64,000 nt of DNA, taken from Marsupella aquatica. Its lineage: Eukaryota; Plantae; Marchantiophyta. Positions 32,571 to 61,900 of this stretch are shown here, piece by piece (the stretch's first letter is position 1; the number at the start of each line of letters is the position of its first letter). The notes beneath the pieces were generated by a model. The model saw only the letters and a program-made list of their open reading frames with translations. It was not told the origin of the DNA and did not search any database. The stretch lies in the NCBI GenBank assembly GCA_973895155.1, contig OZ316896.1, forward strand, positions 17,472,754 to 17,536,753, in the 5' to 3' direction. A program made the position numbers and the translations under genes.

Positions 32571-32580
32571 CTTATATACC
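32571..32580 (-). promoter_or_regulatory. TATA box of F-box copy 1 (paralogous box at ~38876-38885)
   Basis: GGTATATAAG on the - strand is followed by a CT-rich leader and is conserved in both duplicate copies. Confidence 0.55.
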
Positions 32581-32921
32581 CCTTTCCAGCAAATTGGATG
32601 CAAAACTAATCAATGACGGAAACCAAATGTGACTCTTTGGCCCGCTGAATATTCTGATTGTTGTGCGGTCCTGAGACACATGTGTTACAGATACACTAAT
32701 TCTATCCAAACATTATGCCTGCCTCACATCCAAACTTCAGACCTTAAGTTGCATGCATCCGCGATATCACCATGCCTTATTGCATGTGCTGTATCACCAT
32801 ATATGGCACCTGTTGGGTCACCATATAGCATGCTCATCCTGGAACATGCTTTACTTTTTGTCTTGTAGTGATATTAAGTGGACAAAATTAAAGAGTAAGA
32901 CTAGAATACATATTAAATGTG

Positions 32922-33241
32922 AATGAAATCAAATAATATAAATAAAGTACATGTAATAAAAGCACATAGTGACCCATGGAAAATACAATTTTATTATTAC
33001 ACAAAGTTGCTACGAGTTGTGCACAATGAAATCAAATAATATAAATAAAGCACATGCAATAAAAACACATAGTGACCAATGGAAAGTATAATTTTATTAC
33101 ACAAAGTTGTGCACGTATTTCAGTGTGTCTTATTAATGACTCTTATTCAATAAAAACCATAAACTTAGGAAAGAAAGCCAAAGGGGAGCTACTCTTATTC
33201 AATAAAAACCATAAACTTAGGAAAGAAAGCCAAAGGGGAGC
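32922..33241. repeat. Local tandem duplications (~103-bp and 51-bp units), present only upstream of copy 1
   Basis: aatgaaatcaaataatataaataaag.acatg occurs twice; actcttattcaataaaaaccataaacttaggaaagaaagccaaaggggagct occurs twice. Confidence 0.8.
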
Positions 33242-37985: not shown

Positions 37986-40463
37986 TTTGCGCTTGATTTG
38001 CAGTCTTGGGACACCTGAGGAGGTCTCCAGGAACAACCAGGGAATATATTGTATCAGAATTTTGGTTGTGTTCACAACAGATCAGAAACGTACGTTAATC
38101 AAATGCCCTGGACTGCTTAATTATGAGAGAGCGAAACCTGATGGGCAAGAAACTCACGTTGAGAATGAAGGCTTGGACGGAGGGAGGTATGGGTCAAGGA
38201 AAAGGATGCAAAACGAGCTGAAGGACCAAGCCCCGGCCGAACTAAGCAAATGATAGAAAATTTAGGGTGGACAACACAATTCTGGACAAACAACGAGATC
38301 GAAGTGAAACAGGCCTGTGCTAGCAGCACCGATGAGAAAGAAAGTAGAGTTGCAATTAAATGTACATTCAGAGCTGATGACTCCAGGACAAGTGTTTAAA
38401 GAATAAAACAACATTCGGAACAATAACTACCAAAAAAGAGACAGTCAAATGATTGGTATGGAAGCAAGACAATCCAAAAACAGCAAGATTACAGTGAACG
38501 TACGTATAATAGTAGGCAAATCACGTCGAATGAAGACAAAACAAGAGACGGCACCTGCTGAAAAAGAGAGTTGTGAGATCCCAACGTTGCTAGCTCAGAC
38601 TGAAAAATTCTTGCTTGTTTGCAGCTCTAACTCCAACACAACTTTCTGGTACACAATGTCTCCAACCTTCCTCTCTGTAGCAGGTCCAAGACCTCGAACA
38701 GCACGAGCAGACCCTCACTCACACGATCAGGTGCTTCGAGCTGTATAGTGTCTACACCATCATGCTGAATGCTAGCTCAAAGGTGGAAAGGGAGAGACGG
38801 GGAGCTCAGAGAAGAGAGAAATTAACGTAGGCGAGGAAGAGAGTTCGGAATGAGGAGGAATAGGGCCAGTACTTCCTTATATACCAGTTTCAGCAAATTG
38901 GATGCAGAACTAATCAATGACGGAAACCAAATGTGACTCCTTGGCCCCCTGCTAATTCTGATTTTTGTGCGTTCAGACACATATGTGACACCTACCCTTC
39001 ATTCTATCCAAACATTATGCCTGTCTCACATCCAACCTTTATCCCTTATTGCATGTGCTATGTCATGGTGGCAGCTATTGGGTCACCACGTCACATGCAG
39101 ACGTTACGCCTTATCATATGTGCTATGTCCCTTCAGTTCATCACTAGACATTCATTACTTAGGTATTTGCCATTGTCGATAGACCAATAGCTGGAAGGAA
39201 TAAAGAAACTATTTCTTGTCTATCTCTACTAAAGAAGTGACTAGCCCTGATGAACTTCTGAATATTCAGTCCCAGCAAACTCAGACCAGTGGGGAAATGG
39301 ACTCTCATTTAAGTCTTAATTTTTACCACGTAATATGCTGTGGAATAAATCATGTCATATTAAAATGAACATTATGTCTTATCACATTAGTTTGCTCTCT
39401 AATCAGACCCTACGTACAGCCACTTGAGAACCCAAGCGTAGTACTTGGCTCCCCCAACCTGGCGCCATCACCCTGGGCCATCGCAAAGACTATGGAGAAA
39501 ATTCCCACATGGTGTAATTTGGAAAAAACTAGGACACCCATAAAACATGAAAGTACTCACACAATTTGAGCCATACTTAGACTCCTGAGGGTTGTGGAGC
39601 TTGTAACTTTCTCAAATCTGAGGATATCAAGTAAAACTCAATCTCTAGCTCAAAAGTTGATTTGATTATCTGTCTAAGTGATTTATCATGTATTTAATCA
39701 TTATATTGGAGAAATATCCAGCTTGCAAAATTAGTTAATAATATGGGTAATGCATAGGCCACTTACATGATCCTAGCTCTACATATTACTCCATTGTAAT
39801 TCATGTTTTTGCTATATTGTATGTGGTAGTTCTATCAAAAACTAGCTAGCCCATTATTTGCCAATGCGTTGCGCAAACATGTTAAGGTGGGGTGAGGCAT
39901 GTCAAGCATAGACGACATTCGTAACGGCAAGCCCATGAACCATCCAACGCACAAGAGTTGACACAGAGAGATACGTGGTTCACCTCCACATGAGGTTACG
40001 TCCACGGGAACACACAAGAGCTTTACTGCACTCTAGGCCGACCGACCATACCAAGCTTCCACAGCACATGCAAGCTCTCCCTATCTCTCAACTAGCTCCG
40101 TAACAATGAGCCTAAGTTCCACCCAGGGTCTGGCATCAGCCCTGGCTATATGCACAACAACACTAGCGCTAACATTAGCTAAGTCCTAACCCGAGTTAGA
40201 CTAACTGTAGTTAGCTCATGAGTCACAAGACTAGAGCAATATCTAACAAACTCCCCCTTGACTCTTGTCTTGGGGACTGGACTAAATGCTACTATATGGA
40301 TTCCTCAGCAGGAAGTTCTAGACAATCACCAAACCAGGTCTCGATCCCCCTAAAAACCACAAGGGTTAACTAGAACTAAGTCGTAGCCTAACAGGAATGA
40401 GTAATCCATATACAAATAGTCACACATTGCTAAATAACTCTACTTGCACTACAACTGCAAAAC

Positions 40464-43400
40464 CTACAAAGTAGCACGGTGTCTTGAGAAACTCTCCAAA
40501 GGAATCACTTTGGTAAAGGCATCAGCGGGATTGAGCTTTCCATCAATCTTGACTAGCTCAAAAGTTTTATCAGACACTGCTTGCCTGATAAAATGGTACC
40601 TGATATCAATGTGCTTCACCCTGCTATCCATCACCTGGTTAGCAGCCAAGTGAAGAGCACTCTGACTATCACAGTTTAGAGTCATTTTGCCATGCTCTAA
40701 ACCCATCTCCGCGATCAACTTGTCCAACCAAATTGCTTCCTTTGTTGCTTCTGCTGCTGCAACATACTCTGCTTTTGTAGTAGACTGAGATATACACTTC
40801 TGCAAGGTAGATTTCCAACTGATACATCCTCCTCCAAGAGTAAATACAAACCCAGTTGTAGATCTCCTTGTATCTAGACAGCCTCCATAGTCAGAATCTA
40901 CACTCGGGGGTTTCACTTCCACAAAAATGGCATATCACGTGCGACGAAGGATAGGGTCATTTTATTGGTTGTAAGGGAAGACTTAAGAATTTTTGTAGAA
41001 GAACAATAGGGTCTTTTAAATTCAATTTTGAGACTTATAAGAACATTAGGGCATTTTTAATCCAAATTTTGGAATATTCCAAGAATATTCCAACTTTATA
41101 GGGGTTAAAAAACAATATTTTTTTCTTACATTTTAGGGGGTCCAAGGCCTAAAAACGTCGCAGGTGATGGGGAGGTCCCCATGTAGTGAGACCCCCGAGA
41201 ATCTACATAGCCAACTAACGTTCTATCTGATCTGGCATCAAATAGTAATCCATAGTCCTGTGTTCCCTTCAGATACCTGAGAATCCACTTCACAGCTTCC
41301 CAATGTACCTTCCCTGGATTTGACTTGAATCTGCTGAGATTGCCCATCGCTAGGGCCAAGTCAGGCCTAGTACAAGTCATCAAATACATCAGACTGCCTA
41401 CTGCCTTCTCATAAGGAATCTTAGTCATCAGACCTTTCTCCACAGCATCCGTAGGAGAGAAAGCCGATGATAACTTGAAATGTGAAGCTAAAGGAATACT
41501 CACTGGCTTACTGTTCTTCATGTTGAATCGTGCAAGTACTTTCCTCGCATACTGGCCTTGACTCAAGCACAACTGTCCAGTATCAGAGTTCCTAAAAATC
41601 TCCATCCCTAAGATTCTCTTGGCCTTACCAAGATCCTTCATCCTGAATTCAGCACTCAATTTTGCCTTGAGACTGTCAACCTCAGATTGATCTTTAGCCA
41701 CAATTAGCATGTCATCCACATAGATCACTAGAATGATGAAACCAACCACATCATTCTTGACTGATTTTATATACACACAAGGATCATACACCATCCTTGT
41801 AAAACCTTGAGCAAGCATGAAATCATCAAACCGCTTGTTCCACTGTCTAGGAGACTGCTTCAATCCATACAAGGACTTGAGCAATCTGCAAACTAAGTTC
41901 TCTTGGACCTTCTTCATAAAGCCTAGTGGCTGTCTCATGAAGATCAACTCTTCCAAGTTGCCATAGAGAAAAGCAGTAACAACATCCATTTGATCCATCA
42001 CCAGACCAAAAAACACAACAAGCTGACATAAGATCTGAATAGTGGAATACTTAGCCACCGGTGAAAAGACCTCATTGTAGTCCACTCCTTTCTCCTGAGT
42101 GAACCCCTTGGCAACAAGCCTTGCCTTGTAGATCTTGTCTCCACCCTCTGAAGGACTGTCCTTCAACTTGCTGTCCACCACTTGTTGACCTCTTGGAAGC
42201 TCCACCAGCTCCCATGTCTTGTTGTCACTCAAAGATTGCAACTCCCTCTGCATTGCTGCATTCCACTCATGCTTCTGCTCTGAAGCACAAGCCTCACTGA
42301 ACGAAGAAGGCTCTCCTTCTTCCAAGATCAAAGCCATATCATCTTCATCAGGTGCAAGTCAATATCATCTAGCTTAGATGAGTCTGTCCATTGACCGTAC
42401 CTGGTAGGAGCTCTAGTAGAACGACTAGAAGTTCTTCCAGTAGATGACTCAGGCTGATTTGATGCTGCTGTTGGCTGAATTTGAGGTACCCCAGCAACAA
42501 TCTGCTCCTCTTGTTCCATCACAGGAACCAGCTCCAAGCCTAGAGCTTCCATCTCTCCTGTCATGAACTGCATCATGACTAATCTCCCCCTCAACCCGGT
42601 CCGGGATGGGAGATTTTCCCTTATCAGTATGGGAGTCCTGAGAACTCTCCCCCTCCTTTGATGATCTGGACTCATTAAAGGACACATCTCTACTGACAAT
42701 TAGTTTATAGGTTACTGGATCCCATAACCTATAACCCTTCACACCTTTCTGATAGCCAAGGAATATGCACTTCTTCAACTTGGACTCCAGCTTGGATCGA
42801 ATCTGGGAAGGTGTAAGCACATAAGCATCACATCCAAAATTCCTCAGATGTGAATAATCTACTGGACGCCCGTACCTAATTTCATATGGCGTCTTGAATC
42901 CAATAGAACTTGATGGAGAAAAATTTACCAAATAAGCTGCAGTGTTGACAGCTTCAGCCCAAAACTCATGTGGTAAACATGATTGACTCAACATACTCCT
43001 CGAGCGGTCCAATAGTGTTCGGTTGAGTCTCTCAGAAACACCATTCTGCTGAGGAGTATAACTTGTTGTGAGATGGAGGGTAATCCCCTGCTCCTTACAA
43101 TACGTTCCAAATTCTCTAGAACTGTATTCACCGCCATTATCCGATCGAAGATATCTCACCTTGTTACCAGTCTGATTCTCAACTTGGGCTCTCCACTCCT
43201 TAAAAGTGGCAAAAACATCAGACTTACTGTGTAGAAAGTATATCCACACATACCTTGAGTAATCGTCTATGAATGTGACATAGTATAACCGTCCAGAATG
43301 TGAGGGAGTAGGGGCTGGACCCCACACATCACTATGTACATACTCAAGTACCTCCTTGTTGGTGTGAGTTCCAACTTCGAAGGGTTTCCTGTGCTGTTTC

Positions 43401-44818
43401 CCAAGCACACAATGCTCACAAAATTCCAACTTACAAGACTACAAATTAGAAAGTAATCCTTTCTTCTGAAGAATAACCAAACCTTTTTCACTCATGTGGC
43501 CCAAACGGAAGTGCCACAGCCGGGCCGTCTCCTCATGAGATAAGGTTATATTGGCTTCATCACAAACTACACTGCCTTCCAAAACGTATAGATTGCTATG
43601 TCTTTTTCCCTTCAATACAACTTCAGTACCAGTTGAAACCTGAAGGACACCATTAGCAGAACTCCACTGATGGCCATTTGCTTATAAAACTCCAAGTGAA
43701 ATGAGATTTTTCATCATGCTGGGAATATGTCTCACATTCCTCAACGTTCTTACAGCATCATCAAACATCTGAAATCTTACAGATCCAAGTCCAACCACTT
43801 GACATGGGATTCCATTTCCCATCAACACTGAACCGTTGGAATCCGTGTAAGAACTGAAAAAATCTCTCCTAGAGCAAATGTGAAAAGTACATGCACTATC
43901 TAGAATCCAGTCATCACTACCTGGATTTGACACAACGTTGAGAGCAAAACCTTGGCATCACAATATGTCATCATCGTCAAGTAAATCTACCTCATGCGAG
44001 CTTGATGCCACGTTGGCAGATGCAGTAGGGTCCTTTACTTGACAATCCCTCTTCATGTGGCCAGGCTTGCCACATTTCCAACACGCAAGAGGCTTCCTCT
44101 CTTGCGATTTCCCTCTGGATTTAGATCTCCCCTGTGATGTAGATCTAAACCTGTTCTGCCCATTTGTGTGCTGCGCTGCTCTCCCACGGTTCACGTTCAG
44201 CGCAGTGCCAGAAGAAGATGTTGTTTGTGATTGACCCCGCTTCTTCTGAGCATCATCAAACAGTAAAGAGCTCACCACCTCATTATACGAAATGGACTTC
44301 AGATTTCTATACAAGAGCACCTGTTTCAAGCCCTGATATGACGGCGGTAAGGAGCTTAGCAGAAGCAAGGCCTTATCCTCATCTTCAACTCCTTTTCCCA
44401 GGTTTGACAGATCCACCGTAAGACTGTCAAATTCATCCAGATGATCCTGCATCTTGCTCCCTTCTTTGAGCCTGAGGCTCATCAAGAGAAACTTCTTGTA
44501 CAGCCGGTCTGACGCATCTTCCCGGTAGTACTTCTCCCTTAGAGCCTTGAATAGTGACGCGTAATCCGCATAATCATCCAGTTGCTTGATGATGTGCGGC
44601 TTGAGATATAGCATCACTGCATTGACAGCAATCACCTGCTCCTGTCTCCATTGATTCTCCGACATCTCCTCCTCTCCATCATACTGCTCTCGTGAAGAAA
44701 GCAAATAAGCTAAGCCCATGGCCCGTAGAACACCCTTCACTTGCTTCTCCTAGAGCAAGTAATCAGTACGACCATCGTACTTCTCCACCTCAAACTTTAC
44801 CCCTCCAAATCTAGCCAT
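40464..44818 (-). pseudogene. Copia gag-PR-INT-RT-RH polyprotein, disrupted by stops, frameshifts and a MITE
   Basis: Gag with CWKCGKPGHMKRDC; protease WILDSACTFH; integrase VHSDVWGP...LRSDNGGEY...PQQNGVSER; RT YKARLVAKGF, LYGLKQSPRQW, IYVDDML; RNase [16 protein letters not shown]. An in-frame TAG lies near 44750. Confidence 0.95.
40903..41199. mobile_element. 297-bp MITE with 15-bp TIRs and 8-bp TSD, inserted in the Copia RNase H
   Basis: TIRs ctcgggggtttcact / agtgagacccccgag (14/15 match). TSD AATCTACA at 40895-40902 / 41200-41207. Removing it restores GYVDSDYGG. Confidence 0.92.
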
Positions 44819-46220
44819 CTCCCTCTTCTTTCCAACTATCGACAGCTCTGGTAGTAACACAACTTCCTCCATTGCACGCCGCACCGGTGATTATACCGGT
44901 GACACTTGTTTCTCCTCAAACGGTAGCAGCTCCTCCTCAGACTCTCTGTCTGACCGTCGCGATGCTGAAGCTCCACCGACGCCAATTCTTCCAGTATCCT
45001 CCGAGTCACTCATATGAAACAATCACAAAAAAAACGTCTTTTTTTGAAACTTCTCACAAAACTCAAAACTCAACACCGGCGCGTAGCCCACGAAGCTAGG
45101 AGTCCAATACTGAAAGCCGAAATCAAAATCAAAATTCGATGGAAAAGTTATTCAAATTTTGGTCGGGGTGGGTAAAACCTTGGGAAACTCCCCCGTTTTG
45201 ACCACCTCGGAGAATAACCAAACTACCAAGTACAACCCGTCATCGGAATCACGATGTGATCGATGCGTCGTGTTGCTAGTTACTTCAGTGGCAACGTCCT
45301 CGCCGAAAAAGAACCAAAATAGTTACCATTCGGCGGACGGAATCTTTGTCGGACGGCCGAAAACCAGCTCTCTATTTTTTGGGAATATTCCCACATAGTT
45401 CGACAGGTCTCACAAGGGGCCGTTCCCCCTGTCCAAGCGGTTAAAATTCTGGGTCACCGGTCTTGGGAAAGCCAAAATTAAGAGTCGGGGAAAAAGGGTT
45501 AAAAAATAGGGCCCTAGAGGGGGTGCAAAGCCCCTTATGACCCAAAAATACCCTGTATAAAGGTCGGTAGTACGCGGGCAGGGCGTATGAAGGGGCGAAC
45601 AAGGAATGGCAGCGGAGCAGCTATGGCTGCATACGCAGCCTGATACAGGGTCGGGGGGGCGAAACGGCGCCGTGCGCCGGGGAGGGGCGCCGGCGCTCCC
45701 GAGTATCGCTGTCGTGGGGATTCCTTTTAGAAGGCAAGAATCCATATTATATTATTTGAGTTTATGTGAAGAGGGTTTTACTTAAAAGCTTCATAGTAGT
45801 ACTATTAGAGCATATATGTTACATTCTATATGTAGTATGTACATTTTACAATGGTACATAGTAGTTCCATCATTTACGCATAGTAGTTTTACAAACTAGA
45901 TGCATAGTAATTCCACCAACTACGCACAGTAGTTCCACCAACTATGAATAGTACTAGCACACTTATAGGTGCTTGATGCTTGCCCTCTTGGAAAACACAA
46001 AGGGGCACTATAAATAAAGTGAAGAGGAGCACACTCCCCTCATTCGCATTTGTTTGATTTATCGTGTCGGACTCGCAACATTGTAAGGAACTCTTTCCCT
46101 CTTGTGCATATGTCTTGTTTATTATTTACCTCCATGCTTGGGTACTAACTTGATTGTTAGCCTTAGAACTATTTTATGTTTTATGTTTATTAGTCTTGAG
46201 ATCAATTTAGTGTGCTTGTA

Positions 46221-46454
46221 ATGAATAATATGATAAATGGAGTACCTAGAGTTTATCCCCCACCTGCTGTGCCATTTGTCAATCTTTTCTTTATTAGAAT
46301 TCATTGTCTTAGCAAGCATACCATGAGAATGCATCTTCTTTATCATTTTGGGTTTGAGTTAATGGAAACAGTTATGAATAGCGATGCACCATTTGTATAC
46401 CCGATTGTTGTTTATGGAAATGAATGGAATGTAACTATTTTTATTTTATATTAG
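46221..46454 (+). CDS. LTR-encoded small ORF-A (77 aa from the first ATG; copy at 59536-59769), unknown function
   Basis: Open in both LTRs, downstream of TATAAATA (46009-46016). Aligns without gaps to the neighbouring ORF-B (IRxxCxxKxxxRxxLxxx[FY]GxE). Confidence 0.5.
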   Translation: MNNMINGVPRVYPPPAVPFVNLFFIRIHCLSKHTMRMHLLYHFGFELMETVMNSDAPFVYPIVVYGNEWNVTIFILY

Positions 46455-46700
46455 ATGGATTTTAATAGACAATCCGTAAATGTACCGGAGTTAGATTTGA
46501 ATAGGCTTCCTAATAATGTGTCTGATTTTCCTTCATCTATTGACATTAGAGTGGTATGCCGTAAGAAGGTTGATTGTAGAGATGTTTTAGTTAGAAAGTA
46601 TGGAGATGAAAGATACAATGTTATGCTTAGGATGCCAGAGCCTATGATTATATCATCTATGGTAAATCTTAAGATCATAGTCTTTGTTTTCTATAATTGA
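46455..46700 (+). CDS. LTR-encoded small ORF-B (81 aa; copy at 59770-60015) with a DLNxxP EAR-like motif
   Basis: ATG directly follows the ORF-A stop (TAGATG). Open in both LTRs. Contains ELDLNRLP. Appears homologous to ORF-A. Confidence 0.55.
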   Translation: MDFNRQSVNVPELDLNRLPNNVSDFPSSIDIRVVCRKKVDCRDVLVRKYGDERYNVMLRMPEPMIISSMVNLKIIVFVFYN

Positions 46701-47159
46701 CTTATCTAATTGTAGGATTCGTTGGAAATTTCAATCTATGACTTGACTTGGGAAGTAAGTTATGTGGAAAGAAGATAGGCCGATTCGAGACTTAGTGTGA
46801 GGAAGCCGCTCATCGTAGAGTGGGACAAAGGCTGTGAGAGATATTTTAGAGGATAACGATGAGAGAAATTGATCGACAAAGGGGATCGCAAGGGTAATGT
46901 GAGGTGAGAAAAAACGTATTTTGGAAAGGTTTCTTCCAAGATAGGAAAAACAAGAGCTCGGTGCTTCCCAAGAACTAAAGATTCCCCCGACATAAGTGGC
47001 GACCATACTGGGGAACTCTTGGGGCCTATTTTTGGAAGAAAAAAGGAAGTATTGTATTACTAGAAGAGGCTAACTTGCTTTACTAGACAATTGGTCTAGG
47101 GACACCTAGGTGGTGGGCGCCTATTCATTGCGAGAGAGTAAACAAGTTGATATATAGCA

Positions 47160-49333
47160 ATGCCTAACAGTACTGACATGGGAGACTCAAGTATGTCCCC
47201 CAACACTATGGACATGGATACCATGTCTAGAATGTTGTTAACTTTGATGCAGAGTATGAAACAAACCGATACAGCAGAAAATCAAAAGAGAGAGCAAGCA
47301 CATTGTGCAACAAGGTGCTTGAGGAAGGTTCTTGAGAAGAATGGGCAATTTGATGGTCGTAATGTAACTCGTTACATGAAGACCTATTGGCAAGAGGCTA
47401 CTATTGAGCAACTTTCAGAAGAGGTTGCAATTCGTCAATTTTCAACATTGGTGGAGCCAGAATTAAAAGGGATCGTTGATGCTATAGTTCTTGAGGCATC
47501 AAAAGACAAGACATGGAGGTGTTTTGAGAAATGCATGAAGGAGGAATTCCAATTGGAGGATGCTGATCGAATTACACAAGTGACATTTTGTGATTGGGTC
47601 CATGAGAGGAACAAGAAATTGGGGCCACAAGAACTATTGCGAGAGTTCAACAAGAAGTTCAATCAACTTCCAGATTCAGAGGCACAAGTCATCCGGATGC
47701 AGAGGTGTACTCTATTTCTTAGAGCTGCAGATGAGAAGCTAAGGGATGAGTTGGAGAATGCTTTGGATCTAATTGATCCAGATCGTACTGACTCTTCTAC
47801 AAATTGGGAGAACATTGAGAAGGCAGTGATGAAGGTAAGTCATCGACATAGAAGAAGAGACTTGGATCAAGAGGCTATCAGTGGAGTTCCAAGTCAAACC
47901 AAGACATCAATCACTACAAGGATGGATAACACTACTAGTGGGGGTGAGAAGAAGGAGATCAAGTCCACAGCACAAGAAGGCAAAGGAGGAGCAGTTGAAG
48001 AGCTTGCTAATTTGATGAGGAACTTGACCATTCTTACAACCCAAGTTCTAAACCAGACGCAAGCAACCAAGACTACAACAACAACAAATCGCACATGGAA
48101 TTGCATGTGGTGTGACAGCAAGGAGCATAGAAGAAATGATTGCACTGAACTTTCTGCAGCACTTCGAAATCGACTTGTGAAGTTTGTTGGTGAGCAAGGA
48201 CAAAAGAAGCTTGCATACTACAACACTGAGGAACTTATATCACTCAACAATAATCGTGGAGGGATGAGAGCCTTAGTGGAGAAAAAGTTGGCAACAGAAG
48301 GAGTAGACACAGCAGCAACTGTAATCGAGCCTAATGTTTTTGCTGCAACAAGTTGTTTTTCAAAAAAGGTACTTGATGAGACAGGAAAGAAAAAGCTTGC
48401 TGACTACATTCGTCAACAAACTGGATGGGATGCTCCTGTGTTAATAGCCCCAATTACTGTAGAAGTTGGAGCTACATGGGAAGCAAGAGTGGAGGACAAG
48501 CGCAAAACTCCTTCAAGTGATGAGCCAAGAGGAAAGATGCCAATAAGAGAAACTTCAGATTCACCAATGGAGGAAGAGAAGAAGAATGAGAAGTCAACCA
48601 AAAAGGGACCTGGGTGGATACTAGGCCGTGATGTGGAACAAACAATTGAACTAGAGAGAATTGCTGATAAGTTTTGGAAGCAAGAAGCCCGTGGTTTTAC
48701 AAATGAGGAGTTTTTTGGGAGTTTGAGGAAAGACATACAAGAAGCAATTCTTACAAGATCAAAGAAGAAACGTTTTTACAAAGAGGGTCCTCATGCTCTA
48801 GCTGGGGAGATGGAGGATTCAGACAATGAAGGAGAAACTAAGAGTGTGAGCATTTGTGCAGTACAAGTTGAAGACAACAAAGTTGAGGTAGATTCCTATC
48901 ATGCTAAATCTATAAAAGAAATGGAGTCATATTGGGCAAGAGCTTGTGATGAAGTTGAGGTGGAGCTGATTGGAGTCAAAGGTCCTATCAAGGCACTTAT
49001 TGATTCAGGATCAGAGGTGAATCTAATGTCAAGGGAGCTCTACAACCAAGGAAGGTGGAAGGTGGATCGAGACATCCAATGGAAGGTGAAATCAGTGAAT
49101 GCAAATCACAATTCTTTGTGGGGAGCTTGACCTGATGTGAAGCTTAAGGTAGGAAATGTGCTTGAAGACATCAATGTCTTTGTTCATGATTCCTTACCTT
49201 ATCCACTTCTTCTAGGACAACCTTTCATTACAGAATGGAGACTAGAGACTAAGGTTCTTGATGATGGCACTCATATGGCCAAAGTCAAGAGTAAGGATAA
49301 TCTTCGTGTTATCCAATTTCCAACAGTTCGCCC
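47160..49333 (+). pseudogene. Gypsy gag-protease ORF, interrupted by the nested element; the frame resumes at 55462 and ends at 55528
   Basis: FDGRNVTRYM gag N-terminus, zinc knuckle CMWCDSKEHRRNDC, protease ALIDSGSEVNLM...LLLGQPF. Premature TGA at 49128-49130. Confidence 0.9.
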
Positions 49334-49502
49334 TGTGGTATGGGTGTCCCTGCAATTTTTTCTGGAAACTTGTTTATTTTTAGCATATCACAAGATTTAC
49401 TTACACTTTAGACACCTTCCGGCCAACATTTACTTGTTCTGGACACTTATAGAAATATTTGACAACTCCGGCTTTCCTGACGATTCCTAGTGTACTTTGC
49501 CC

Positions 49503-49768
49503 GACGCTGTGACCAGCGCCCGTTTCTTTTACTCAAGACGCTGCGGAAGCGTCCAACCTCCTCATGACGCTTTTGGCAGTGCCCGACCGCCACCAAGACT
49601 CTATGAGGATTTCGACCGACGCTGTGGAAAGCGTCAGCTTCAACACACGACGCTGTGAGCAGCGTCCACCCTAGTATTGACGCTGTGAGCAGTGTGAGCA
49701 GCGTCCGTTGGTTTTACTTAAGACGCTTCTAGCAGCGTCCAGATTCTCCCGACGCTTCTAGCAGCGTC
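49503..49768. repeat. Array of 8-9 GACGCT-N6-AGCGTC palindromes with variable spacers (copy at 54239-54504)
   Basis: Units start at 49503, 49537, 49566, 49597 (degenerate), 49618, 49649, 49679, 49722 and 49751. Confidence 0.9.
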
Positions 49769-51938
49769 CGCTCAACACTTAGTTTTTGAAGTAGATTACT
49801 AGTAAAGTAGTATTCTACCACCCTTGTTGAAGTACTTATGCTGTGCTTCTCCCTTGTTTAGTTTTAAGCTTGGAAAGGCACGACTGTTCTTACCTCCTCC
49901 ATTTTAGGATTCCAGCACTTATAAGACAGAGTAGAATGCTCATTTGAAGTAGAGAGAAATAGAGTTAATACTGTATTCAGAATTGAGTCTTCTGAATAGT
50001 TTTCTCCTCCTTCCATTGTAACAAGGCATGCTGTGAGTGTTTTGTATGGAAGTAAAGCTATATTGATTGAAGTTAAGATTGAATTCAAGAGATTCCTGTG
50101 GTGATTGAATTCAGTTGCAGATTTCTGAAACTCGTATTGAATTCACTGCTAGGCTTGCTTGCAGAGTCGGGATTCGCTAGCCAATTCAAGAATAGTTAAT
50201 GATAAATGAGAAGTAAATTCTGATTCTCAGAGTAGTTAGTACTGTTGCTTTGATTCTGGAATATGGTTTAGAGTTTGACTGAATTGCGTATCGCTGATGT
50301 CAAACCATGTTGACGGCATTTTAAATCATATCATTCATTTGCAATCAGAAAGCTTCTGCTTCATCAGATTGAGAATTCCATTATCATTAACCTTTGTGTT
50401 TTGAAGAGTGAGATGGATGAATTATGAGATAGATTTCATGTCTATACTGAGCCCAAATCCTTTCTGAAGGAGTGGCAGTAGCTTGTAGTCTCTAAATCCT
50501 TACTCATTTCTTCTCTAATTCATAAATCAGAAGTTCAGTTACTTTGTTGTTTGTTTATTCGATTTTTTTATTGAGAAGTGAAGTCAACATAGAGCTCAAG
50601 ACTCTAAATCACTCGGAGTGATAAAAGTTATACAATTCATTTTGAAATCTGTTCTTAAAGGGATCGAAACCCTGGTTTTAGGTGAGGAGAGTCACTTTTG
50701 ATACTTAGCACTATACGACATCTTTTTGGCGCCGCTGCCGGGGAACGAATTTAAGATTGAATTGACGTACAGGCAGTGTATGCCAGAAGGAGCTAGACGG
50801 GAGAGGAATTCACGTTCTACTATAATTGTGAAGATGCGTCATCACTCCAGTTAAAAAGATGAAGAGCTTCCATTTCGAGGTGATGCCGTACTCTATCCAA
50901 AGCGCCCCGGAAGCTCTCTTAAGAGTATTGGAAAAATTTGTGGTGCCAAACTTAAGAGAAGAAACCGCCCTCCCACCAGAAAAGGCCTCACAGAGAGGAG
51001 CTGCTGCTCGTCAAGTTGCTTTGGAGATAGTCGAAGACACCAAAGACACTTTGAGTGACAAGTGAAGTTATTCTAACGTTGCTCGGGACGTATGATTTGT
51101 AAAATTGTCCAACCATCCTGGTTCGTGTGACCGATGCCACCTATCTGATCTTTGGGAACATTAAGAATTAGGAATTTGAGGAATCGTTATGTTAATTCTT
51201 GGGTTCTGAGCCTGAGAGGGAGGAATGGCATACATTGGTTAACTATCACCTGGTGGGAAGATGAAAGTTTGCATTTAGTAATATTAAGGCTGAATGGTAG
51301 GATCACACAGGAGTGATATTTAGTCATTTCCATTCGGGAGTTAGCGGAAAGAATCATGCACCAGGAATTGCGTAGAAGATTAGGAAGGAGTTAGACGTCT
51401 GATTAGTAGGATGGCCTAGTGTAGCGTACCATGTGGTAAAGAAATTTCAGGGTGAAGGAAGTCGGAGATTATGGGGAACGCCCGGTTCCAGTAATCGCCA
51501 CCGTAAAGGAGATAAGGAAGGACGCCGCGAAGAGCGTCCAATGCGATTCGTCCCAGAAGATTCCGCAAGTCAGGACGCTTCGAGTAGCGTCCGATCCCAG
51601 TGGACGCTGTGAGCAGCGTCCGGTGGAATCTGTGACGAACCAACGTGCGCGACGCTTCTGGTGTGCCTTTCCGCGTCTCAACCTGAAGGACGCACCAGAG
51701 AAAACGAGGTTTTAGAATCTCGGCTGGTCACTGAAGGGAAGTATTAGCTACGGGATAGCAAGGGGGAGGAATCATGCAAGGGATGTTGAACGACGCTACG
51801 GGAAGTCACTTTGAGGAAGCAGGTTCATATCTCCCGGAGTGGGGTGATAACGTCGCACCTAAATGGTGACTCCTTGCATAAAGACTCCTGAGGAGCGGGT
51901 CTGGTGTCTCAAAATCACCCGTGCTTGGAGAATGAGGG

Positions 51939-53992
51939 ATGTCTGAGGGAGATCCACCGAATAAAAGAAAACCTACCAAGACCTCCAGTAATTCGGATGC
52001 TGCAAAATTAGTAGTGACCCCTCGCACATTGTTACCCGAATTCCAGTCACCAGGAGCACCTGCACCGGGTAGTGTGTGGAAACAAGTGGGATCTATTCAA
52101 GAGGCAAGTGGCTCTTTGGAAAGGCCCACGTCGACCCGACCCCTGTTTGTAAATCTTCGTTCAGGTCCAAAACTTATTGGTTCTCAAAAGACCAAGCTCC
52201 GCCAGCAGACAGTACGTTCGGTGAACCAAATTGACTCTGGTGTGGATAGTACCACTGAGAGGGCCTTATCTCATACCGAAGGAAGAAATTTGGGTTTGCC
52301 CGAGAATACAGTTGCAGAATCGCTGGCCCAAGATAATTCTGTCGATCTTTCACAATTGGATAATCCAGAACCACTGAGTGAAGCCGGTGGTTCGTCTTCT
52401 AGTGAGACAAGCAGCAGTTCAGGCTTGGGCAGCCCAAACCCATATTGGTACCCGAGACACCCGCTTCGACAACCAGCTCAGCACCAGTTTCATTGGCTAC
52501 AAACGAGGATAAAAACATTCGGGAGGAGTTTTCAGTGACGTATACTCGAAAATCTTGGAAACGGTTGCGCCATGCTATCAGTCGACAGATCTTTCCTGAA
52601 GCATCTTCCCAGGATTTTGAACAGGGAGAAGCACCTATCGGAACAGACGAGCTACCCCTTCCTGTACTTTTGACAGATCGAACTAACCAGGAAGTCTCTT
52701 TACCTAGCGATAATTTTAAAGAAGAACTTCCTGTTTTAGTACCAATGCATCCCATTGCAGATCAACCAGCTACTGTTGCAAGAGAAGAATTTGAACCACT
52801 GGAGCCCGAACCTTCTGCTCCTTCGTCTCCTGTTACATTGCCAATTCGACCAGTTAAGGAGTCAGTGATTCCTTCCGCTATGCCAGATGTAATTTTCCGT
52901 TGGATAGGAGCACCAAGTGATGGAGAAGAAGACGAAGACCCTCGCATTATCAGAGTACCTCCTCGACTTCGGCATACAGTGGATTTGCCACCCCGAAATC
53001 CTATCCCTAATTTGGCTTCAATTCACAGGTGGGAGAAGAAACATTTTCGAGTAGCTTTTCGACATCTGGAGATGGAGAGCATTTTGCAGCAGCAGCAGAT
53101 TTTGCCAATGACATCCCATCCGAGGATTCGTAGTTTGATTCGCACATATGAACCTGGGAAGGCGGTTCCTCCCATTGATAAGGACAGACGACATAAGTTT
53201 TCGGAGTTCGAAATTTGGTGTTGGGTGTATATGCTTCGACGAGCTCAAGCTCCATTTCCGCCCCTTGTGCCGGAAATTCCATGGCCCTATCCATACTATG
53301 TTTGGGTTTGTCCTGGTGGGTTTGCTATTCCAATTAAATATGAGAAGAAGCTTGTTAAGCTAAGGGAGCAGTTGATTACAAAACAATGTATGCTACCGGC
53401 TTCCCAAGGGTTCAAGTCGCTTAGGTGTTTAGCGTTCCTACCTATTATTCCTTCTTATCCGGATGTGATTATTCAAGGTGTTTTATCTAGGACACAGATT
53501 TGAAGGACACCATTTATGAGAGATATCAAACGGTGTTGTCATTTATATGTATATAAGCCGTTACTTTTGCAGCATCCTGCAATTGTTTCCTTCTTTCTCC
53601 TTCGAATTGATATTTATCTGCTCATGTGGGACATCAAAGCTACTATGGATTGTTGGAATTCTTTACCCCGTGCTTTCCAACATTCCTTTGAAGGCAAGAT
53701 CAAACTGGGAGGACATGCTATTCAACACTTTGTTATTGATCCAGGCTCTCGAATTAATTTCCTCTCCCACAGACTGTGCCAGCAATTTGTTCATCAAGAA
53801 GTACAACCGATATCTGCTCAGATATCAATCGATGGACGAATCATTAATCTTTGGGGAAGAGTTAAAGGAGTCCCAATACAGATCGGAGAAGAATTCCATG
53901 ACCTCGATTTTTATATTCTGGATTCGGATATCTCCCAACTCCCGTCAATGATTTTGAGCACTACTTGGATTATTAAGCCAGAATATTATTAA
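51939..53992 (+). CDS. Unknown ~680-aa Pro/Ser/Glu-rich protein ending in a retropepsin-like domain, split by a -1 frameshift (~52435) and an in-frame TGA (53501-53503)
   Basis: ORFs 51939-52538, 52445-53503 and 53516-53992; the last two share a frame. FVIDPGSRINFL...MILSTTWI resembles the retropepsin D[ST]G / ILG motifs but is degenerate. Confidence 0.55.
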
Positions 53993-55518
53993 TGAAGAAC
54001 ATGTCACTCGCTTCTGATTCAATTCGGTCATGTCTTGTGGGGACACGGCGAAATTTAAGTGGAGGGCTATGTGGTATGGGTGTCCCTGCAATTTTTTCTG
54101 GAAACTTGTTTATTTTTAGCATATCACAAGATTTACTTACACTTTAGACACCTTCCGGCCAACATTTACTTGTTCTGGACACTTATAGAAATATTTGACA
54201 ACTCCGGCTTTCCTGACGATTCCTAGTGTACTTTGCCCGACGCTGTGACCAGCGCCCGTTTCTTTTACTCAAGACGCTGCGGAAGCGTCCAACCTCCTCA
54301 TGACGCTTTTGGCAGTGCCCGACCGCCACCAAGACTCTATGAGGATTTCGACCGACGCTGTGGAAAGCGTCAGCTTCAACACACGACGCTGTGAGCAGCG
54401 TCCACCCTAGTATTGACGCTGTGAGCAGTGTGAGCAGCGTCCGTTGGTTTTACTTAAGACGCTTCTAGCAGCGTCCAGATTCTCCCGACGCTTCTAGCAG
54501 CGTCCGCTCAACACTTAGTTTTTGAAGTAGATTACTAGTAAAGTAGTATTCTACCACCCTTGTTGAAGTACTTATGCTGTGCTTCTCCCTTGTTTAGTTT
54601 TAAGCTTGGAAAGGCACGACTGTTCTTACCTCCTCCATTTTAGGATTCCAGCACTTATAAGACAGAGTAGAATGCTCATTTGAAGTAGAGAGAAATAGAG
54701 TTAATACTGTATTCAGAATTGAGTCTTCTGAATAGTTTTCTCCTCCTTCCATTGTAACAAGGCATGCTGTGAGTGTTTTGTATGGAAGTAAAGCTATATT
54801 GATTGAAGTTAAGATTGAATTCAAGAGATTCCTGTGGTGATTGAATTCAGTTGCAGATTTCTGAAACTCGTATTGAATTCACTGCTAGGCTTGCTTGCAG
54901 AGTCGGGATTCGCTAGCCAATTCAAGAATAGTTAATGATAAATGAGAAGTAAATTCTGATTCTCAGAGTAGTTAGTACTGTTGCTTTGATTCTGGAATAT
55001 GGTTTAGAGTTTGACTGAATTGCGTATCGCTGATGTCAAACCATGTTGACGGCATTTTAAATCATATCATTCATTTGCAATCAGAAAGCTTCTGCTTCAT
55101 CAGATTGAGAATTCCATTATCATTAACCTTTGTGTTTTGAAGAGTGAGATGGATGAATTATGAGATAGATTTCATGTCTATACTGAGCCCAAATCCTTTC
55201 TGAAGGAGTGGCAGTAGCTTGTAGTCTCTAAATCCTTACTCATTTCTTCTCTAATTCATAAATCAGAAGTTCAGTTACTTTGTTGTTTGTTTATTCGATT
55301 TTTTTATTGAGAAGTGAAGTCAACATAGAGCTCAAGACTCTAAATCACTCGGAGTGATAAAAGTTATACAATTCATTCTGAAATCTGTTCTTAAAGGGAT
55401 CGAAACCCTGGTTTTAGGTGAGGAGAGTCACTTTTGATACTTAGCACTATACGACACGCCCGGATCATGTGAGAAATAGGAAGGAGCTGAGAGCAAGTGA
55501 AGAGATGAAGGACCAAGA

Positions 55519-55583
55519 AAATTTCTGATTGGCATCCCGTTAATGAGGGTGAGCAGGCAGGATGCCAATGTGAGTGACTCACC
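55519..55583 (+). promoter_or_regulatory. Putative -1 programmed ribosomal frameshift signal between gag-pro and pol
   Basis: A_AAT_TTC (55519-55525) is in the gag frame directly before TGA, and pol is in the -1 frame. Stem attggcatcc/ggatgccaat (55528-37 / 55560-69); loop ggtgag can pair with ctcacc (55578-83). Confidence 0.7.
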
Positions 55584-58500
55584 AAACATAAGATTTTCCT
55601 CGTCTTCGTTTATAGCTATAGGGAGAGATAGAGAGGTTTCATATATGCAAGTTAGAGAGGCATCAAGAAAATTGAAAAAGAGAATTGAAAGAAGTAAGGC
55701 TATGTTAGTTAGTCAACGTGTTATGGATTTAAGTGATAATATAGAGGGTGTGCTAGATGAACAAGGTTGTTGTCCCACTTTGCAGCAAGTTATAGTAGAT
55801 TTGAATGATGGAAAGGGTGAGATAGAAGTAGGCCCATTGCTATATCAGCATATAGAAGAGTTGGTTGAGGTGAACACAAAGTACAAGACAATAGATAAGA
55901 AGGTTAGACCAGCAGCCACACCTCTACCAGCTGATGCAAGAGATATTTTAAGAAGTGCTAGCAAGGAGCCTAGTTTGAGAGATAAAAGAAAAATTGGACA
56001 TACATTCACAGAAGATACTTTGAACCAATTGCAAATTGGTGATGATGGACTACTTACCATGATCGAGAAGGAGGCATTCAAAAAGATGATCAAAGAGCAT
56101 GGGAGGGCATTTTCCTTTTCTATGGAGGAGATAGGATGTGTGGATCCACAGAAGGTAACACCAATGGTTATTTTTACAGTTCCACACATACCATGGGATT
56201 TGAAGCCAATTTCAGTTCCAAGAGCACTAACACCAAAGTTGATAGCATTGTTGAAAGAGAAGTTAGATGCTAAGATACTTGAGAGATCGGATGCACCATA
56301 CTCCAATCGGTGGTTCACAGTGCAGAAGAAGAATGGGAAGCTACGTTTCATTCAAGACATGCAGCCACCAAACAAAGTCACAATTCGGAATGTTGGAGTT
56401 GGACCTGTGGTAGACGAGTATGCTGAAGACTTTGCTGGGAGGGCCATCTATTCCATTGGAGACTTGTACTCAGGGTATGATCAATTCCAACTTTCTCAAA
56501 GTAGTAGGGATATCACCACCATGAGAACTCCACTTGGACTTTTGCGTATGTGCACCTTGCCACAAGGTGCTACTAATTCTGTTGCACATATGCAAAATGC
56601 TATGAACAAGATTTTGGAGTCTTTCATTCCACAGAAAACTAGACCATTCCTTGATGATATGCCAATCAAAGGATGTTTGGAAGAACTCAAGGATGAGACA
56701 CTTCGAAAGGATGGGATACGTCAATTTGTTTGGGAACACATGAAGGATGTAGGGGCTATACTAAAGAAGTTGATTGAGGTGGGAGTTACACTCTCAGGAG
56801 AAAAATCAGCATTTGGCTTGAGAGAAGTCAAAGTGGTTGGGCAGATGTGTGGGCCCTATGGAAGAAAGCCAAGTAAGGAGAAGGTGGAAGCAATCAGCCA
56901 AATGGAGGATTGTCAAACAACTTCAGAGGTATGAAGGTTTTTAGGAGGTTGTATCTTCTACAGAATATGGATACCACATTTTTCACATGTTTCACATCCA
57001 TTATATGGCTTGCTTAAGAAGAATGTAAGATTTATATGGAAAAGTGAACATGTAGAAGCAATGCAGCACTTGAAAGAAGCTTTGTTAAGTCCACCCGTGC
57101 TTCGCCCATTGAAGTATGATGGTGTACATCCAATAGTAATTACAATAGATGCGAGTCCATATGGAGCAGGATGGGCATTGGGACAAGATGATGATGATGG
57201 GCATAGAACATCTGCTCGTTTTGGAGCAAAGATCTTTAACGAAAGACAACGGAAGTATCTGCAGATAAAGAGAGAGCTTTGAGGAGCAAAACTAGCACTT
57301 AGGCAAGAGAGAGATTACTTGATAGGAGCTAACATGATTCTAGAAACTGATTGCTTACCCTTACTTGGGATGATTATAAACTGTGATACTCCCAACATTG
57401 CTATGCTTAGGTGGATAGCTTTTATCCGAATGTTTAATCCAGAACTGAAGCACATAACTGGAAAAGATAATCCAGTGGCTGATATGTTGTCAAGAGCTAG
57501 ATATAAATCAGGCAAGCATAGTATTGAGTGTTCACATGGTGAGATTGAGGGACAAATTAAGGAGTTGTTATTCTATGAAGATCTATATTCAGGAGAGTTG
57601 CTAGTTATAGGACGTTATTTGAGTACATTGGAGAGAGACACTAGATGGAGTGATGAAGAATTCAGCAAGATTCGAAAGAAGGCTTACAAGTTCTTGGTTC
57701 GAGATGGATACTTATGGAGGCGTCCAAAGGCAAGGAGTCAAGTACCTCTGAGAGTGCTTGATACTGAGGGAGAGAAAGTTCAAGTATTACAAGAGGCACA
57801 TGATCTTGAAGCAGCAGGGCATCGTGGAGTTCAGGCTACATATGAAAAGTTAAGAAGATTCTACTGGTGGGCTGGAATGTATGTGGATGTTCGAGAATAT
57901 GTTGGATCTTGTGAGATTTGCCAATACTACTCAAAGATTCAACATAGAGATGGCTTGAACCCTACACATCCTCTATCTTTACATTTTCAATGGGGTATAG
58001 ATATCGTTCATATGCCACCAGGGATTAGAGGTGCAAAATATTTAGTGTTAGCTAGAGAAGACTTGTCTTCGTATGTGGAAGGGAGGGCATTATCTTCTAA
58101 CAAGACTGAAGCCGTATGCAGGTTTGTGTTAGAAGATATCATTGCTAGACATGGATGTTTTAGGCGCATGAGAGCTGACCGTGGAGAGTTAGATAGCAAA
58201 GAGGCAAAGGCATTCTTCAAGAAATTTCATATCCGCTTAAAACTAACTACATCTTACAATCCAGAAGCAAACGGCAAGAGTGAGAGAGGTCATCCACCAA
58301 TTGTTAATGCCTTAGTCAAATCATGCAAGGGAAAGGCATCAAGGTGGCCAAACTTACTACCTTTAGCTCTATTAGCAGATAGAATGACTTGTAGTTCGGT
58401 GATAGGATATGCACCGGCAGAATTAGTGAGTGGGCATCTACCTTTAATGCCATTAGAGGAGAATGTTTTTAGTTGGAGGACAGTTGACTGGGAAGATCAG

Positions 58501-58905
58501 ATATCACATGAAGAGCTACTTGCAAGGAGGATGGAACATTTCCAAACAACTCCAGAAAAGATTGACATTGCAATGGAGAAAGTGAAGCAAGCACGAGAGA
58601 AGAATAAGGTCAGATTTGATAAGACTCATCGATTGAGACCTATTCAAATCAAAGAAGGAGATTGGGTTCTTATTGCAGAAGGAGGGTTGGAGCAACAACA
58701 TTCGACAAAAGCTAAGTTTATGAGAAGATGAAGAGGGCCATTTGTGGTTGTTACTATTCACCCAAATGCAACATACACAGTTCGAGAGTTAGATGGAGCA
58801 ATTCATCAAGTTCCTTATGCAGGCAAGAGGGTTAAGCTTTTCAAACAACGTTTGAAATTTCATTTACAAGATGTGTATGATTTGAGTGATGTAGAGGACT
58901 TTTGA
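55543..58905 (+). pseudogene. Gypsy pol (RT-RNase H-integrase) with three in-frame TGA stops; no chromodomain seen
   Basis: RT KLRFIQD, DLYSGYDQF, LPQGATNS, PFLDD; RNase H IDASPYGAG, ETDC, NPVADMLSR; integrase HDLEAAGH..CEIC, WGIDIVH, ADRGE, YNPEANGKSER. Stops at 56932, 57280 and 58729. Confidence 0.95.
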
Positions 58906-61900
58906 AGCTGGGTCATAAGGTTGGTGCAGACCGGAGGCTGCACAGGTTTAGTGGGGGTGATATGTCGTGGGGATTCCTTTTAGAAGGCAAGAATCCATAT
59001 TATGTTATTTGAGTTTATGTGAAGAGGGTTTTACTTAAAAGCTTCATAGTAGTACTATTAGAGCATATATGTTACATTCTATATGTAGTATGTACATTTT
59101 ACAATGGTACACAGTAGTTCCACCATTTACGCATAGTAGTTTTACAAACTAGATGCATAGTAATTCCACCAACTACGCACGGTAGTTCCACCAACTACGC
59201 ACGGTAGTTCCACCAACTATGAATAGTACTAGCACACTTATAGGTGCTTGATGCTTGCCACTTGGCTTCCATCCAAGGGTCAAGGCATCGATCCATGCCC
59301 TCTTGGAAAACACAAAGGGGCACTATAAATAAAGTAAAGAGGAGCACACTCTCCTTATTCGCATTTGTTTGATCTATCGTGTCAGACTCGCAACATTATA
59401 AGGAACTCTTTCCCTCTTGTGCACATGTCTTGTTTATTATTTACCTCCATGTTTGGGTACTAACTTGATTGTTAGCCTTAGAACTATTTTATGTTTTATG
59501 TTTATTAGTCTTGAGATCAATTTAGTGTGCTTGTAATGAATAATATGATAAATGGAGTACCTAGAGTTTATCCCCCACCTGCTGTGCCATTTGTCAATCC
59601 TTTCTTAATTAGAATTCATTGTCTTAGCAAGCATACCATGAGAATGCATCTTCTTTATCATTTTGGGTTTGAGTTAATGGAAACAGTTATGAATAGCGAT
59701 GCACCATTTGTATACCCGATTGTTGTTTATGGAAATGAATGGAATGTAACTATTTTTATTTTATATTAGATGGATTTTAATAGACAATCCGTAAATGTAC
59801 CGGAGTTAGATTTGAATAGGCTTCCTAACAATGTGTCTGATTTTCCTTCATCTATTGACATTAGAGTGGTATGCCGTAAGAAGGTTGATTGTAGAGATGT
59901 TTTAGTTAGAAAGTATGGAGATGAAAGATACAATGTTATGCTTAGGATGCCAGAGCCTGTGATTATATCATCTATGGTAAATCTTAAGATCATAGTCTTT
60001 GTTTTCTATAATTGACTTATCTAATTGTAGGATTTGTTGGAAATTGCAATCTATGACTTGACTTGGGAAATAAGTTATGTGGAAAGAGGATAGGCCGATT
60101 CGAGGCTTAGTGTGAGGAAGCCGCTCATCGTAGAGTGGGACAAAGGCTGTGAGAGATATTTTAGAGGATAACGGTGAGAGAAATTGATCGACAAAGGGGA
60201 TCGCAAGGGTAATGTGAGGTGAGAAAAGACGTATTTTGGAAAGGTTTCTTCCAAGATAGGAAAAACAAGAGTTCGGTGCTTCCCAAGAACTAAAGATTCC
60301 CCCGACATCACGAAAGCTTTAAGGGGGAAAAAAATCACCTTATAGTAACCAAAAAAAAATGTCACTCAAAGCAAAAAATGACATTCTTGCCTTGCCGTTT
60401 GCTTGAGGAAAGTGACCATCGCCGACGTGTAAAAGTTTCCAAATTGCACCGGCACAGTCTGCAACTCCAACACTGCAAAAACTTTCCGCCGCGGCGCCTT
60501 CACTCCGCGTCAAGTGCCAATCCCGGGCTCAAAACGGCCGCCTTGCCGCAATCAAACTATTGAGCCGTAGCACTTCGCGTTTCTGCCACCGAGTCGGACG
60601 TCACGAAGAGAAACCCGGTTCAGATGAGAACAAGCTCCATAGCTTGTAAAAAAACCTGAACGTCTCCTTCACTCATCACGTCGCACTCGGTAACAACTCG
60701 ACAATAATCAAGCTACCAAAACGACCAGCTCGCATAAACCTTCAACTTGAGCTATAATGTGCAATCCCTCCCGCACCGCACAGCTCACACCGTTGAAGAA
60801 TGCAAATTCTGGTCTCTTCCCCGAAAACCCGTCGAACACGAATAAACCCTGAACGACGTAAACTTCAATTCCTCCGCACCACGGATACCGATTAGCAAGT
60901 TCTAACCACCGTTAGAATGCCCTCTCACTAACCTATCCGCACAGCCACACACATTCGAGTTTCATGATGAAATTCCGAATGTACCATCGACAATGAACGT
61001 TGGAAAAACCTATCACGAAAAAACCTCGTCACCTCCCAGGCATGCTCTGATACCACTTGTTAAACATAGACGATATTCGTAATGACAAGCCCATGAACCA
61101 TCCAACGCACAAGAGTCAACACAGAGAGATACGTGGTTCACCTCCACATGAGGCTACGTCCACGGGAACACACAAGAGCTTTACTGCACTCTAGGCCGAC
61201 CGACCATACCAAGCTTCCACAGCACAAGCTCTCCCTATCTCTCAACTAGCTCCGTAACAATGAGCCTAAGTTCCACCCAGGGTCTGGCATCAGCCCTAGC
61301 TATATGCACAACAACACTACCGCTAACATTAGCTAAGTCCTAACCCAAGTTAGACTAACTGTAGTTAGCTCATGAGTCACAAGACTAGATCAATATCTAA
61401 CAAGGCAAAGATATTGAGGCGAGTTTAGATGTTGATTTGAGGCAAAACATTTGGGGTGATGCAAGGCAAGGCAAAGAAATGGAGGGGAGGCTAGGAAATG
61501 CGTGCAAGACATAAATGTAAGCAAGACAAAAAAATTGAAAGTGAGGCAAGGAAGTTGTTGAGGCATCTTAGATGTATTAATTGCAATCATGTTGTTTTTA
61601 CAGCAATGTGGTCATTGGCGGTCATGGCGTTGTTGTGTTTATCCAGTCATTGTGGCCATGTTGTCATTGCCAAGCCCAATAGGCAAGCATTGCACAAAAA
61701 TATTGAGGTCACAAAGTGCAGTAGGAACAACGGTACACACGTGGATTGACCTATTTTTCGTCAGAGTCCCATTGCACCGCCGGAAAATAGACAAGGCAAG
61801 GACGTGTTGTCATATTAATCACTCTATGCAGTGATGCTATGGTTGCTATCGTGCCATTGTTCAGTTTGAAAGGTTAATTCTTGCTGCCAAAATGTTGTCA

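Follow-up and report, generated by a model that had tools for sequence, protein, structure and literature searches.

Paralogous small genes, one with an EAR-like motif, inside the long terminal repeats of a gypsy retrotransposon from Marsupella aquatica

The element and its LTR-borne ORF pair

The window analyzed here, the whole stretch of 64,000 nucleotides, contains a Ty3/gypsy element whose LTRs each carry two small ORFs (Table 1). The original prediction placed ORF-A and ORF-B next to each other, in a single frame, 3' of the TATA box at 46009 and open in both LTRs. The coordinates confirmed this arrangement. Several relatives of ORF-A begin at a Met equivalent to position 46230. In ORF-B, the sequence DLNRLP occupies residues 14–19 (46494–46511), and the domain shared with ORF-A spans residues 30–80. 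Two ATG-initiated ORFs of at least 74 codons were obtained in 0.15% of 2000 LTR shuffles. The caution that openness in both LTRs is not independent evidence was justified: the LTR copies are 24 substitutions apart, 4 of which fall within the ORF pair.

Table 1. Positions of the element, its ORF pair and associated features in the window
Feature	Position	Strand	Description
5' LTR	45710..46992	+	1283 bp, TG..CA
22-bp tandem repeats	45857..45953	+	5' of the TATA box; 4.3 copies here, with an additional copy in the 3' LTR
TATA box with overlapping AATAAA	46009..46018	+	kept in L001 and L002
Putative 5' leader intron	46083..46210	+	T-rich, indel-rich; several candidate acceptors before ORF-A
ORF-A	46221..46454	+	77 aa, TAG; proline-rich N-terminus and shared domain, no EAR motif
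ORF-B	46455..46700	+	81 aa; 13-codon extension with decayed first motif, then DLNRLP, then shared domain
Putative primer-binding-site-like stretch	46997..47014	+	begins TGG, 4 nt past the 5' LTR
gag-protease and RT-RNaseH-integrase region	47160..58962	+	interrupted by in-frame stops and the nested element
Nested unrelated LTR element	49334..55456	+	1387-bp LTRs, 5-bp TSD, 6.1 kb
3' LTR	58963..60307	+	TG..CA; carries ORF-A copy (59536-59769) and ORF-B copy (59770-60015)

In the scanned pieces of the internal region, Pfam detected RVT_1, RT_RNaseH, Integrase_H2C2 and rve in the gypsy order, and no chromodomain, extra RNase H or other family. Read by eye, the integrase tail ends 57 codons past the last stop, and a purine-rich tract precedes the 3' LTR. 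This gypsy copy is defective, due to in-frame stops in the polyprotein (49130, 56934, 57282 and 58731) and the nested insertion. The primer-binding-site-like stretch is presumably not Trp-like. The target-site flanks, TCGC and TCAC, are one CpG-type change apart, and ACGG follows the related copy on the metagenome contig L001. Without the nested element, the length is 8,475 bp. Among the matches listed, the LTR family occurred in four sequencing runs from two organisms.

Phygy is described in the survey of Neumann et al. (2019, PMC6317226) as a non-chromovirus Ty3/gypsy lineage with a 4-bp NCGN duplication, a length of 7,656–9,968 bp and a primer-binding site that is mostly tRNA-Trp (81%). The window element shares with it the 4-bp NCGN target-site duplication, the length range, a polyprotein that fills the internal region and the lack of a detected chromodomain. 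On the strength of the duplication type and the length, we labeled the element Phygy-like. The survey's description of Phygy gives no extra ORFs, but its floor was 250 codons. The lineage is known there from a moss (PMC6317226), and its occurrence in a liverwort is reported by PMC12885004. The words "ORF" and "splic" are absent from the main text of PMC7466625.

Upstream of the promoter, the 22-bp tandem repeats are candidate regulatory sites. The TATA box overlaps AATAAA in all four LTR copies at hand (the two window LTRs, L001 and the second metagenome contig, L002). If this AATAAA also served polyadenylation, R would be very short and both ORFs would lie in a U5 of ~950 nt. A GTRAG donor is found 69–74 nt 3' of the TATA box in three of the four copies and is lost in the 3' LTR. 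Judged from the sequence, removal of the putative leader intron would take out most upstream ATGs in the window. Two bases upstream of the gag ATG there is an AG, and gag may be made from a spliced message. A 54-nt intron inside ORF-B (46662-46715) was considered and rejected, since its removal gave no gain in the A/B alignment score (40 vs 42), its acceptor region is lost in L001 and L002, and relatives keep the unspliced C-terminus. An Rfam search returned nothing close to threshold.

Selection on the ORFs and their common origin

Protein searches yielded eight relatives of ORF-A (74–87% identity) and eight of ORF-B (62–74%). The outside DNA available for dN/dS consisted of two metagenome contigs, L001 and L002. 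Both have the order TATA box, ORF-A, TAG, ATG, ORF-B, and L001 also includes the LTR end. L001 and L002 are the only relatives whose DNA places the ORFs in an LTR, the distant ones being known as proteins. For ORF-A, dN/dS was 0.064–0.091 in all five cross-family pairs, with bootstrap upper bounds of 0.14–0.19. Its differences were concentrated at third codon positions (22–31, vs 1–5 at second positions), and the region contains stops in all five other frames. ORF-B was looser, having dN/dS values of 0.38–0.83 over five pairs, with an interval that reached or passed ~1 in three of them (upper bounds 0.98, 1.13 and 1.66). Its frame of 68–69 codons is still open in 4/4 DNA copies.

The window copy is 80% identical to L001 and L002 in ORF-A and 67–71% in ORF-B, while the leader from the TATA region to ORF-A drops to 53–60% and is gapped. 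In three linked pairs, identity was 82, 82 and 49% for A and 49, 60 and 31% for B, respectively, A being higher every time. By these comparisons, ORF-B changes much faster than ORF-A. We also examined the 40 best-supported of ~200 variants from two runs. Within this set, 9 of 19 variants in ORF-A were synonymous (4.2 expected) and 10 of 21 in ORF-B (5.5 expected); pooled, there were 19 synonymous changes against 9.7 expected, and no stops. Frameshifting indels were present in single contigs, as dead copies would show. Taken together, the dN/dS and third-position bias of ORF-A, the open frame of ORF-B and the excess of synonymous variants indicate that the LTR ORFs are kept by protein-level selection, as had been proposed. 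The coding status of both ORFs is near certain.

The proposed kinship of A and B started from a gapless match of 33 residues with 9 identities. A recount gave the same nine. Taken alone, this pairwise match is modest (BLASTP E 0.028), and it beats shuffled controls (p = 0.0028 over 5000 shuffles). Profile comparison strengthened it considerably. An alignment of A matched the deep B alignment with an hhalign probability of 95.6% (E 1.2e-8, 59 columns). A profile of the B core scored the window ORF-A at 27.1 bits, and none of 3000 shuffles exceeded 8.1. The same profile gave 20–26 bits for seven of the eight A relatives, and 7.6 for the truncated P0016. On this profile evidence, A and B are almost certainly paralogues.

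These results bear directly on the possibility that no functional protein is made and that the ORFs arise incidentally from splice sites or from DNA or RNA signals conserved in the LTR. The T-rich ORF ends do look like 3' splice sites, and dN/dS of ORF-B comes near 1 in one pair (0.83). Such an origin leaves several observations unexplained, namely an ORF-A dN/dS below 0.1 with third-position bias, non-coding flanks that are more diverged and gapped, the confident fold prediction for B (see below), and B relatives which at about 21–45% identity retain length, hydrophobic pattern and motif. We consider it highly implausible; it is largely refuted already by the ORF-A dN/dS, the A/B profile match and the B alignment.

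Motif, fold and junction of the A–B pair

A profile search with B gave 31 representatives at 50% clustering, and a second round gave 45 proteins. There were no informative names among the B relatives listed. In an alignment of 59 members, in which identity goes as low as 21%, K38 is invariant (59/59), and D14, L15, N16 and G50 are nearly so. DLNxxP occurs in 50/59 members and DLN in 55/59, as compared with DLNxxP in 28 of 17,700 shuffles; the members include many close relatives, so these counts are not independent. In the representative matches, DLNxxP was present in 22/31 and DLN in 27/31, with a search profile that itself contained the motif. When the motif was cut from the profile, 23/31 were still significant; DLN is present in 19 of these and DLNxxP in 14. 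This core-only rescoring is a partial control for the motif in the search profile. The EAR-like motif predicted for ORF-B is thus kept across the family and, along with the invariant K38, is its most strongly conserved feature. Neither DLN nor LxLxL was found in any of the eight ORF-A relatives.

The motif is short and fits the plant consensus exactly. It is joined to the folded domain through a variable linker and is unstructured in the predicted model. In the window subfamily, the N-terminus is duplicated; in six of the seven long forms examined, the inner copy reads DLNRLP and the one ahead of it is mostly decayed. The Leu codon of DLNRLP varies synonymously. Retention of the inner motif, decay of the first copy and synonymous change at Leu argue that the peptide, rather than the start-codon context, is under constraint. 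From its consensus match, its position outside the fold, the variable linker and the duplication, we read DLNxxP as a short linear docking motif.

AlphaFold modeling of B with 59 sequences resulted in a pLDDT of 85.9 (84.6–85.9 over five models) and a pTM of only 0.58. The predicted fold is beta-alpha-alpha-beta-beta, with a strand at residues 30–37, helices at 38–49 and 51–59, and strands at 64–70 and 73–80, preceded by an unstructured N-terminus. A model from a shallow alignment agreed with the deep one. Pfam gave no family for A or B; when 37 aligned B members were searched, its best match appeared in two members and was to an unrelated family. The best hit in a PDB sequence search had an E of 0.63. 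Foldseek returned no match at E 0.001 or better from the PDB (both B models) or from BFVD (first model only). VIA-align gave a best Z of 4.1–4.2, for cell-wall proteins that are unrelated (51 residues aligned at rmsd 3.6). In the ESM Atlas, B and P0052 had no usable match, and recognition scores were low. These failed searches do not establish the fold as new, but the modeled B fold is possibly new. When the B profile was run in HMMER without restriction, no match exceeded 169 aa. Locus scans gave no hit in metagenomes (B alone as the query), viral contigs or prokaryote genomes.

The B core has a median net charge of +3 and the A core of −1. The basic face of B is modest, and its conserved basic residues are R36, K38, R42, R47 and K48. 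The fold searches gave no link of the B domain to DNA binding or transcription factors. This last result, the small domain with conserved basic residues and the position of the genes in the genomic-RNA leader, ahead of gag, would all suit a function of A and B in the RNA or particle cycle, through RNA binding, packaging or control of gag translation. DLNxxP would then be a structural or other binding peptide and not an EAR motif. We judge such a function improbable in view of a motif that is an exact plant consensus, lies outside the fold on a variable linker and is duplicated in one subfamily.

At the A–B junction, stop and start adjoin, with a gap of 0 nt, in L001 and L002 as in the window. 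For 22 distant B relatives, N-terminal extensions in the database gene calls were read in shifted frames in search of the end of A. An A-like C-terminus with a stop fitted a shifted frame in 13 of the 22 extensions, each with a score of at least 34 and above all 150 shuffles; the method chooses codons for best fit, and the 13 include several closely related proteins. One of the remaining nine passed weakly and eight failed. In-frame A–B fusions were found in P0018, P0022 (with Gln at the junction) and the distant P0052, and P0026 is a two-domain protein. The fusions may have arisen by mutation in dead copies, or they may be forms that are tolerated. The A-like ends upstream of distant B relatives, together with the natural fusions, bear out the idea of an old duplicated pair.

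Junction duplications and long forms were seen as well. At positions 761-778 of L002, there is an 18-nt tandem duplication of the ORF-A end including the TAG-ATG junction, and P0022 has the same 18-nt duplication, read through as Gln. P0026 and P0056 are 138–144 aa long, with two domain copies and an altered N-terminal motif, on contigs of up to 8.4 kb.

The inferred A stop lies 1–8 nt before the B ATG in the 12 relatives measured (P0053 was left out). The stops were TAG in seven cases, TGA in three and TAA in one, P0034 being dropped by the last-residue filter. Distant relatives are therefore out of frame, and the in-frame TAG-ATG junction is a feature of the window subfamily only. General stop-codon readthrough as a source of B was rejected, since none of the 12 inferred spacers is a multiple of 3. 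A universal splice acceptor at the A stop was weakened, because four of the 12 relatives (three TGA, one TAA) have no suitable AG, a fifth, P0034, having been removed by the filter; the preference for TAG agrees with an acceptor there. The 18S-complementary TURBS motif was found 5' of the A stop in one of three copies and is not conserved, so the pair was not classed as TURBS. In termination-reinitiation, the stop and start typically lie within about 20 nt of each other, in any frame (PMC10275272). The spacing in the A–B pairs, including the distant ones, falls within this range.

Proposed function and relation to known systems

Our preferred explanation, which we hold tentatively at close to an even chance, is that B would be a TOPLESS/TPR-binding subunit and, together with A, would make up a transcription regulator encoded by the element, whose target is probably the element's own LTR. 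The LTR promoter would give a capped RNA; once its short leader intron has been spliced out, A would be translated first. For B, we lean toward reinitiation just after the A stop. Splicing of the transcript to the AG at the A stop is a more doubtful route to the same product. The DLNxxP motif of B is predicted from its sequence to bind TPL/TPR, which we find quite likely. The folded domain of B is predicted to pair with the matching domain of A. Residues R36, K38, R42, R47 and K48 could aim the pair at DNA or at a chromatin protein, with the element's own LTR as the likeliest destination. The choice between this LTR and host genes as the target is a guess. Transcription of the element family would be adjusted through the A:B ratio. 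3' and solo LTRs retain the promoter and the genes, and they would provide extra doses of the regulator as copies build up.

Instead of regulating its own family, B could bind TOPLESS as a decoy or hijacker at host genes. It would compete with host DLNxxP repressors or bridge TPL to a defence or silencing factor, in favor of the element. By analogy, the fungal effector Jsi1 is described as binding TPL through DLNxxP and turning on repressed genes (PMC8126959). The conservation of the motif in the B family serves this explanation equally, and the faster divergence of B relative to A is what host conflict would produce. Such fast change would also be consistent, however, with B recognizing the DNA of its own element in a family-specific way. 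Moreover, a pure decoy could do without the conserved folded domain and its invariant K38, and also without a linked, motif-free paralogue such as A. We regard a decoy role as rather unlikely. For EAR-motif repressors in general, repression of a reporter by the tethered protein is an established bench assay (PMC6479872). If B binds TOPLESS, the way in which plant retrotransposons control themselves would become directly testable, and so would the view of solo LTRs as active genes.

Accessory genes that overlap an LTR are familiar from retroviruses, where MMTV sag and HIV nef are located in U3, with expression from the 3' end. A and B differ in being located 3' of the TATA box, which means that their expression could come from any LTR copy. 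The proteins HaRxL21, RolB and Naked1 are reportedly EAR-motif mimics of plant pathogens. B, known from sequence, comes in contrast from the terminal repeat of a genomic parasite, with a folded domain as the partner of the motif and with a motif-free paralogue. The Ustilago protein Jsi1 resembles B in that a non-host protein carries the TOPLESS-engaging motif DLNxxP, as far as its description goes (PMC8126959).

Plant retrotransposons such as Athila, Ogre, Retand and SIRE carry extra ORFs, which the survey in PMC6317226 treats as lineage-specific accessory genes of unknown or debated function. Those ORFs have at least 250 codons and are classed there as located either upstream of the polyprotein or downstream of it, whereas the products here are 65–81 aa long, encoded inside the LTR and paralogous, with a host repressor motif. 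A small ORF pair ahead of gag, of unknown role, is described in the Ty3/gypsy elements 412/mdg1 of Drosophila (10.1101/2020.09.24.311225). By that description, it differs from A and B in that the ORFs follow the LTR in the internal region, belong to animals and have no EAR motif; homology to A and B is not expected. Extra ORFs of plant retrotransposons, small ORF pairs of 412/mdg1 and pathogen EAR mimicry are thus each known separately. Our literature search covered titles and abstract openings, with subscription journals mostly missing; within this scope, it returned neither a plant retrotransposon whose LTR contains small paralogous genes nor a transposon protein with an EAR motif.

Judged from their sequences, A and B form an undescribed protein family and would be retrotransposon accessory genes. 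LTRs are treated as non-coding, and the 250-codon floor of the survey in PMC6317226 left genes this small uncounted. In the window, an LTR contains a conserved protein family with no match found in Pfam or in solved structures. The broader picture, for which the sequence evidence makes a case somewhat short of even, is of a bryophyte-type retrotransposon lineage that carries an LTR-borne two-gene regulatory module of undescribed fold, with one subunit capturing TOPLESS by motif mimicry. If true, each full-length copy and each solo LTR would be a self-contained expression cassette for the module. The family would own a copy-sensing switch, and many copies of a trans-acting repressor gene would be spread over the host genome. 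If B binds TOPLESS, a transposon would be using the motif mimicry of plant pathogens. As a putative repressor of ~70 residues with a possibly new fold, B is an easy structural target.

The window contains several other repeats. The nested element is young: its LTRs differ by one mismatch, it is flanked by the duplication CGCCC and it has a primer-binding-site-like site. A run of the B profile on it gave no match. Its ORFs at 51936-53992 yielded a weak protease match only, no RT was found, and it is likely non-autonomous. On the minus strand at 40464-44719, a broken Ty1/copia element (RVT_2, E 6e-63) stands head to head with the gypsy element. The segments 30597-33000 and 36884-39000 form a tandem duplication with copies ~6.3 kb apart. 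The related ORFs at 30912-31766 and 36969-38081 (minus strand) are F-box-like by eye, with no Pfam match at E 0.1. A 12-bp tandem array of ~30 units lies at 62593-62966, and three dispersed copies of a ~350-bp repeat are located at 15441-15785, 39900-40249 and 61058-61403.
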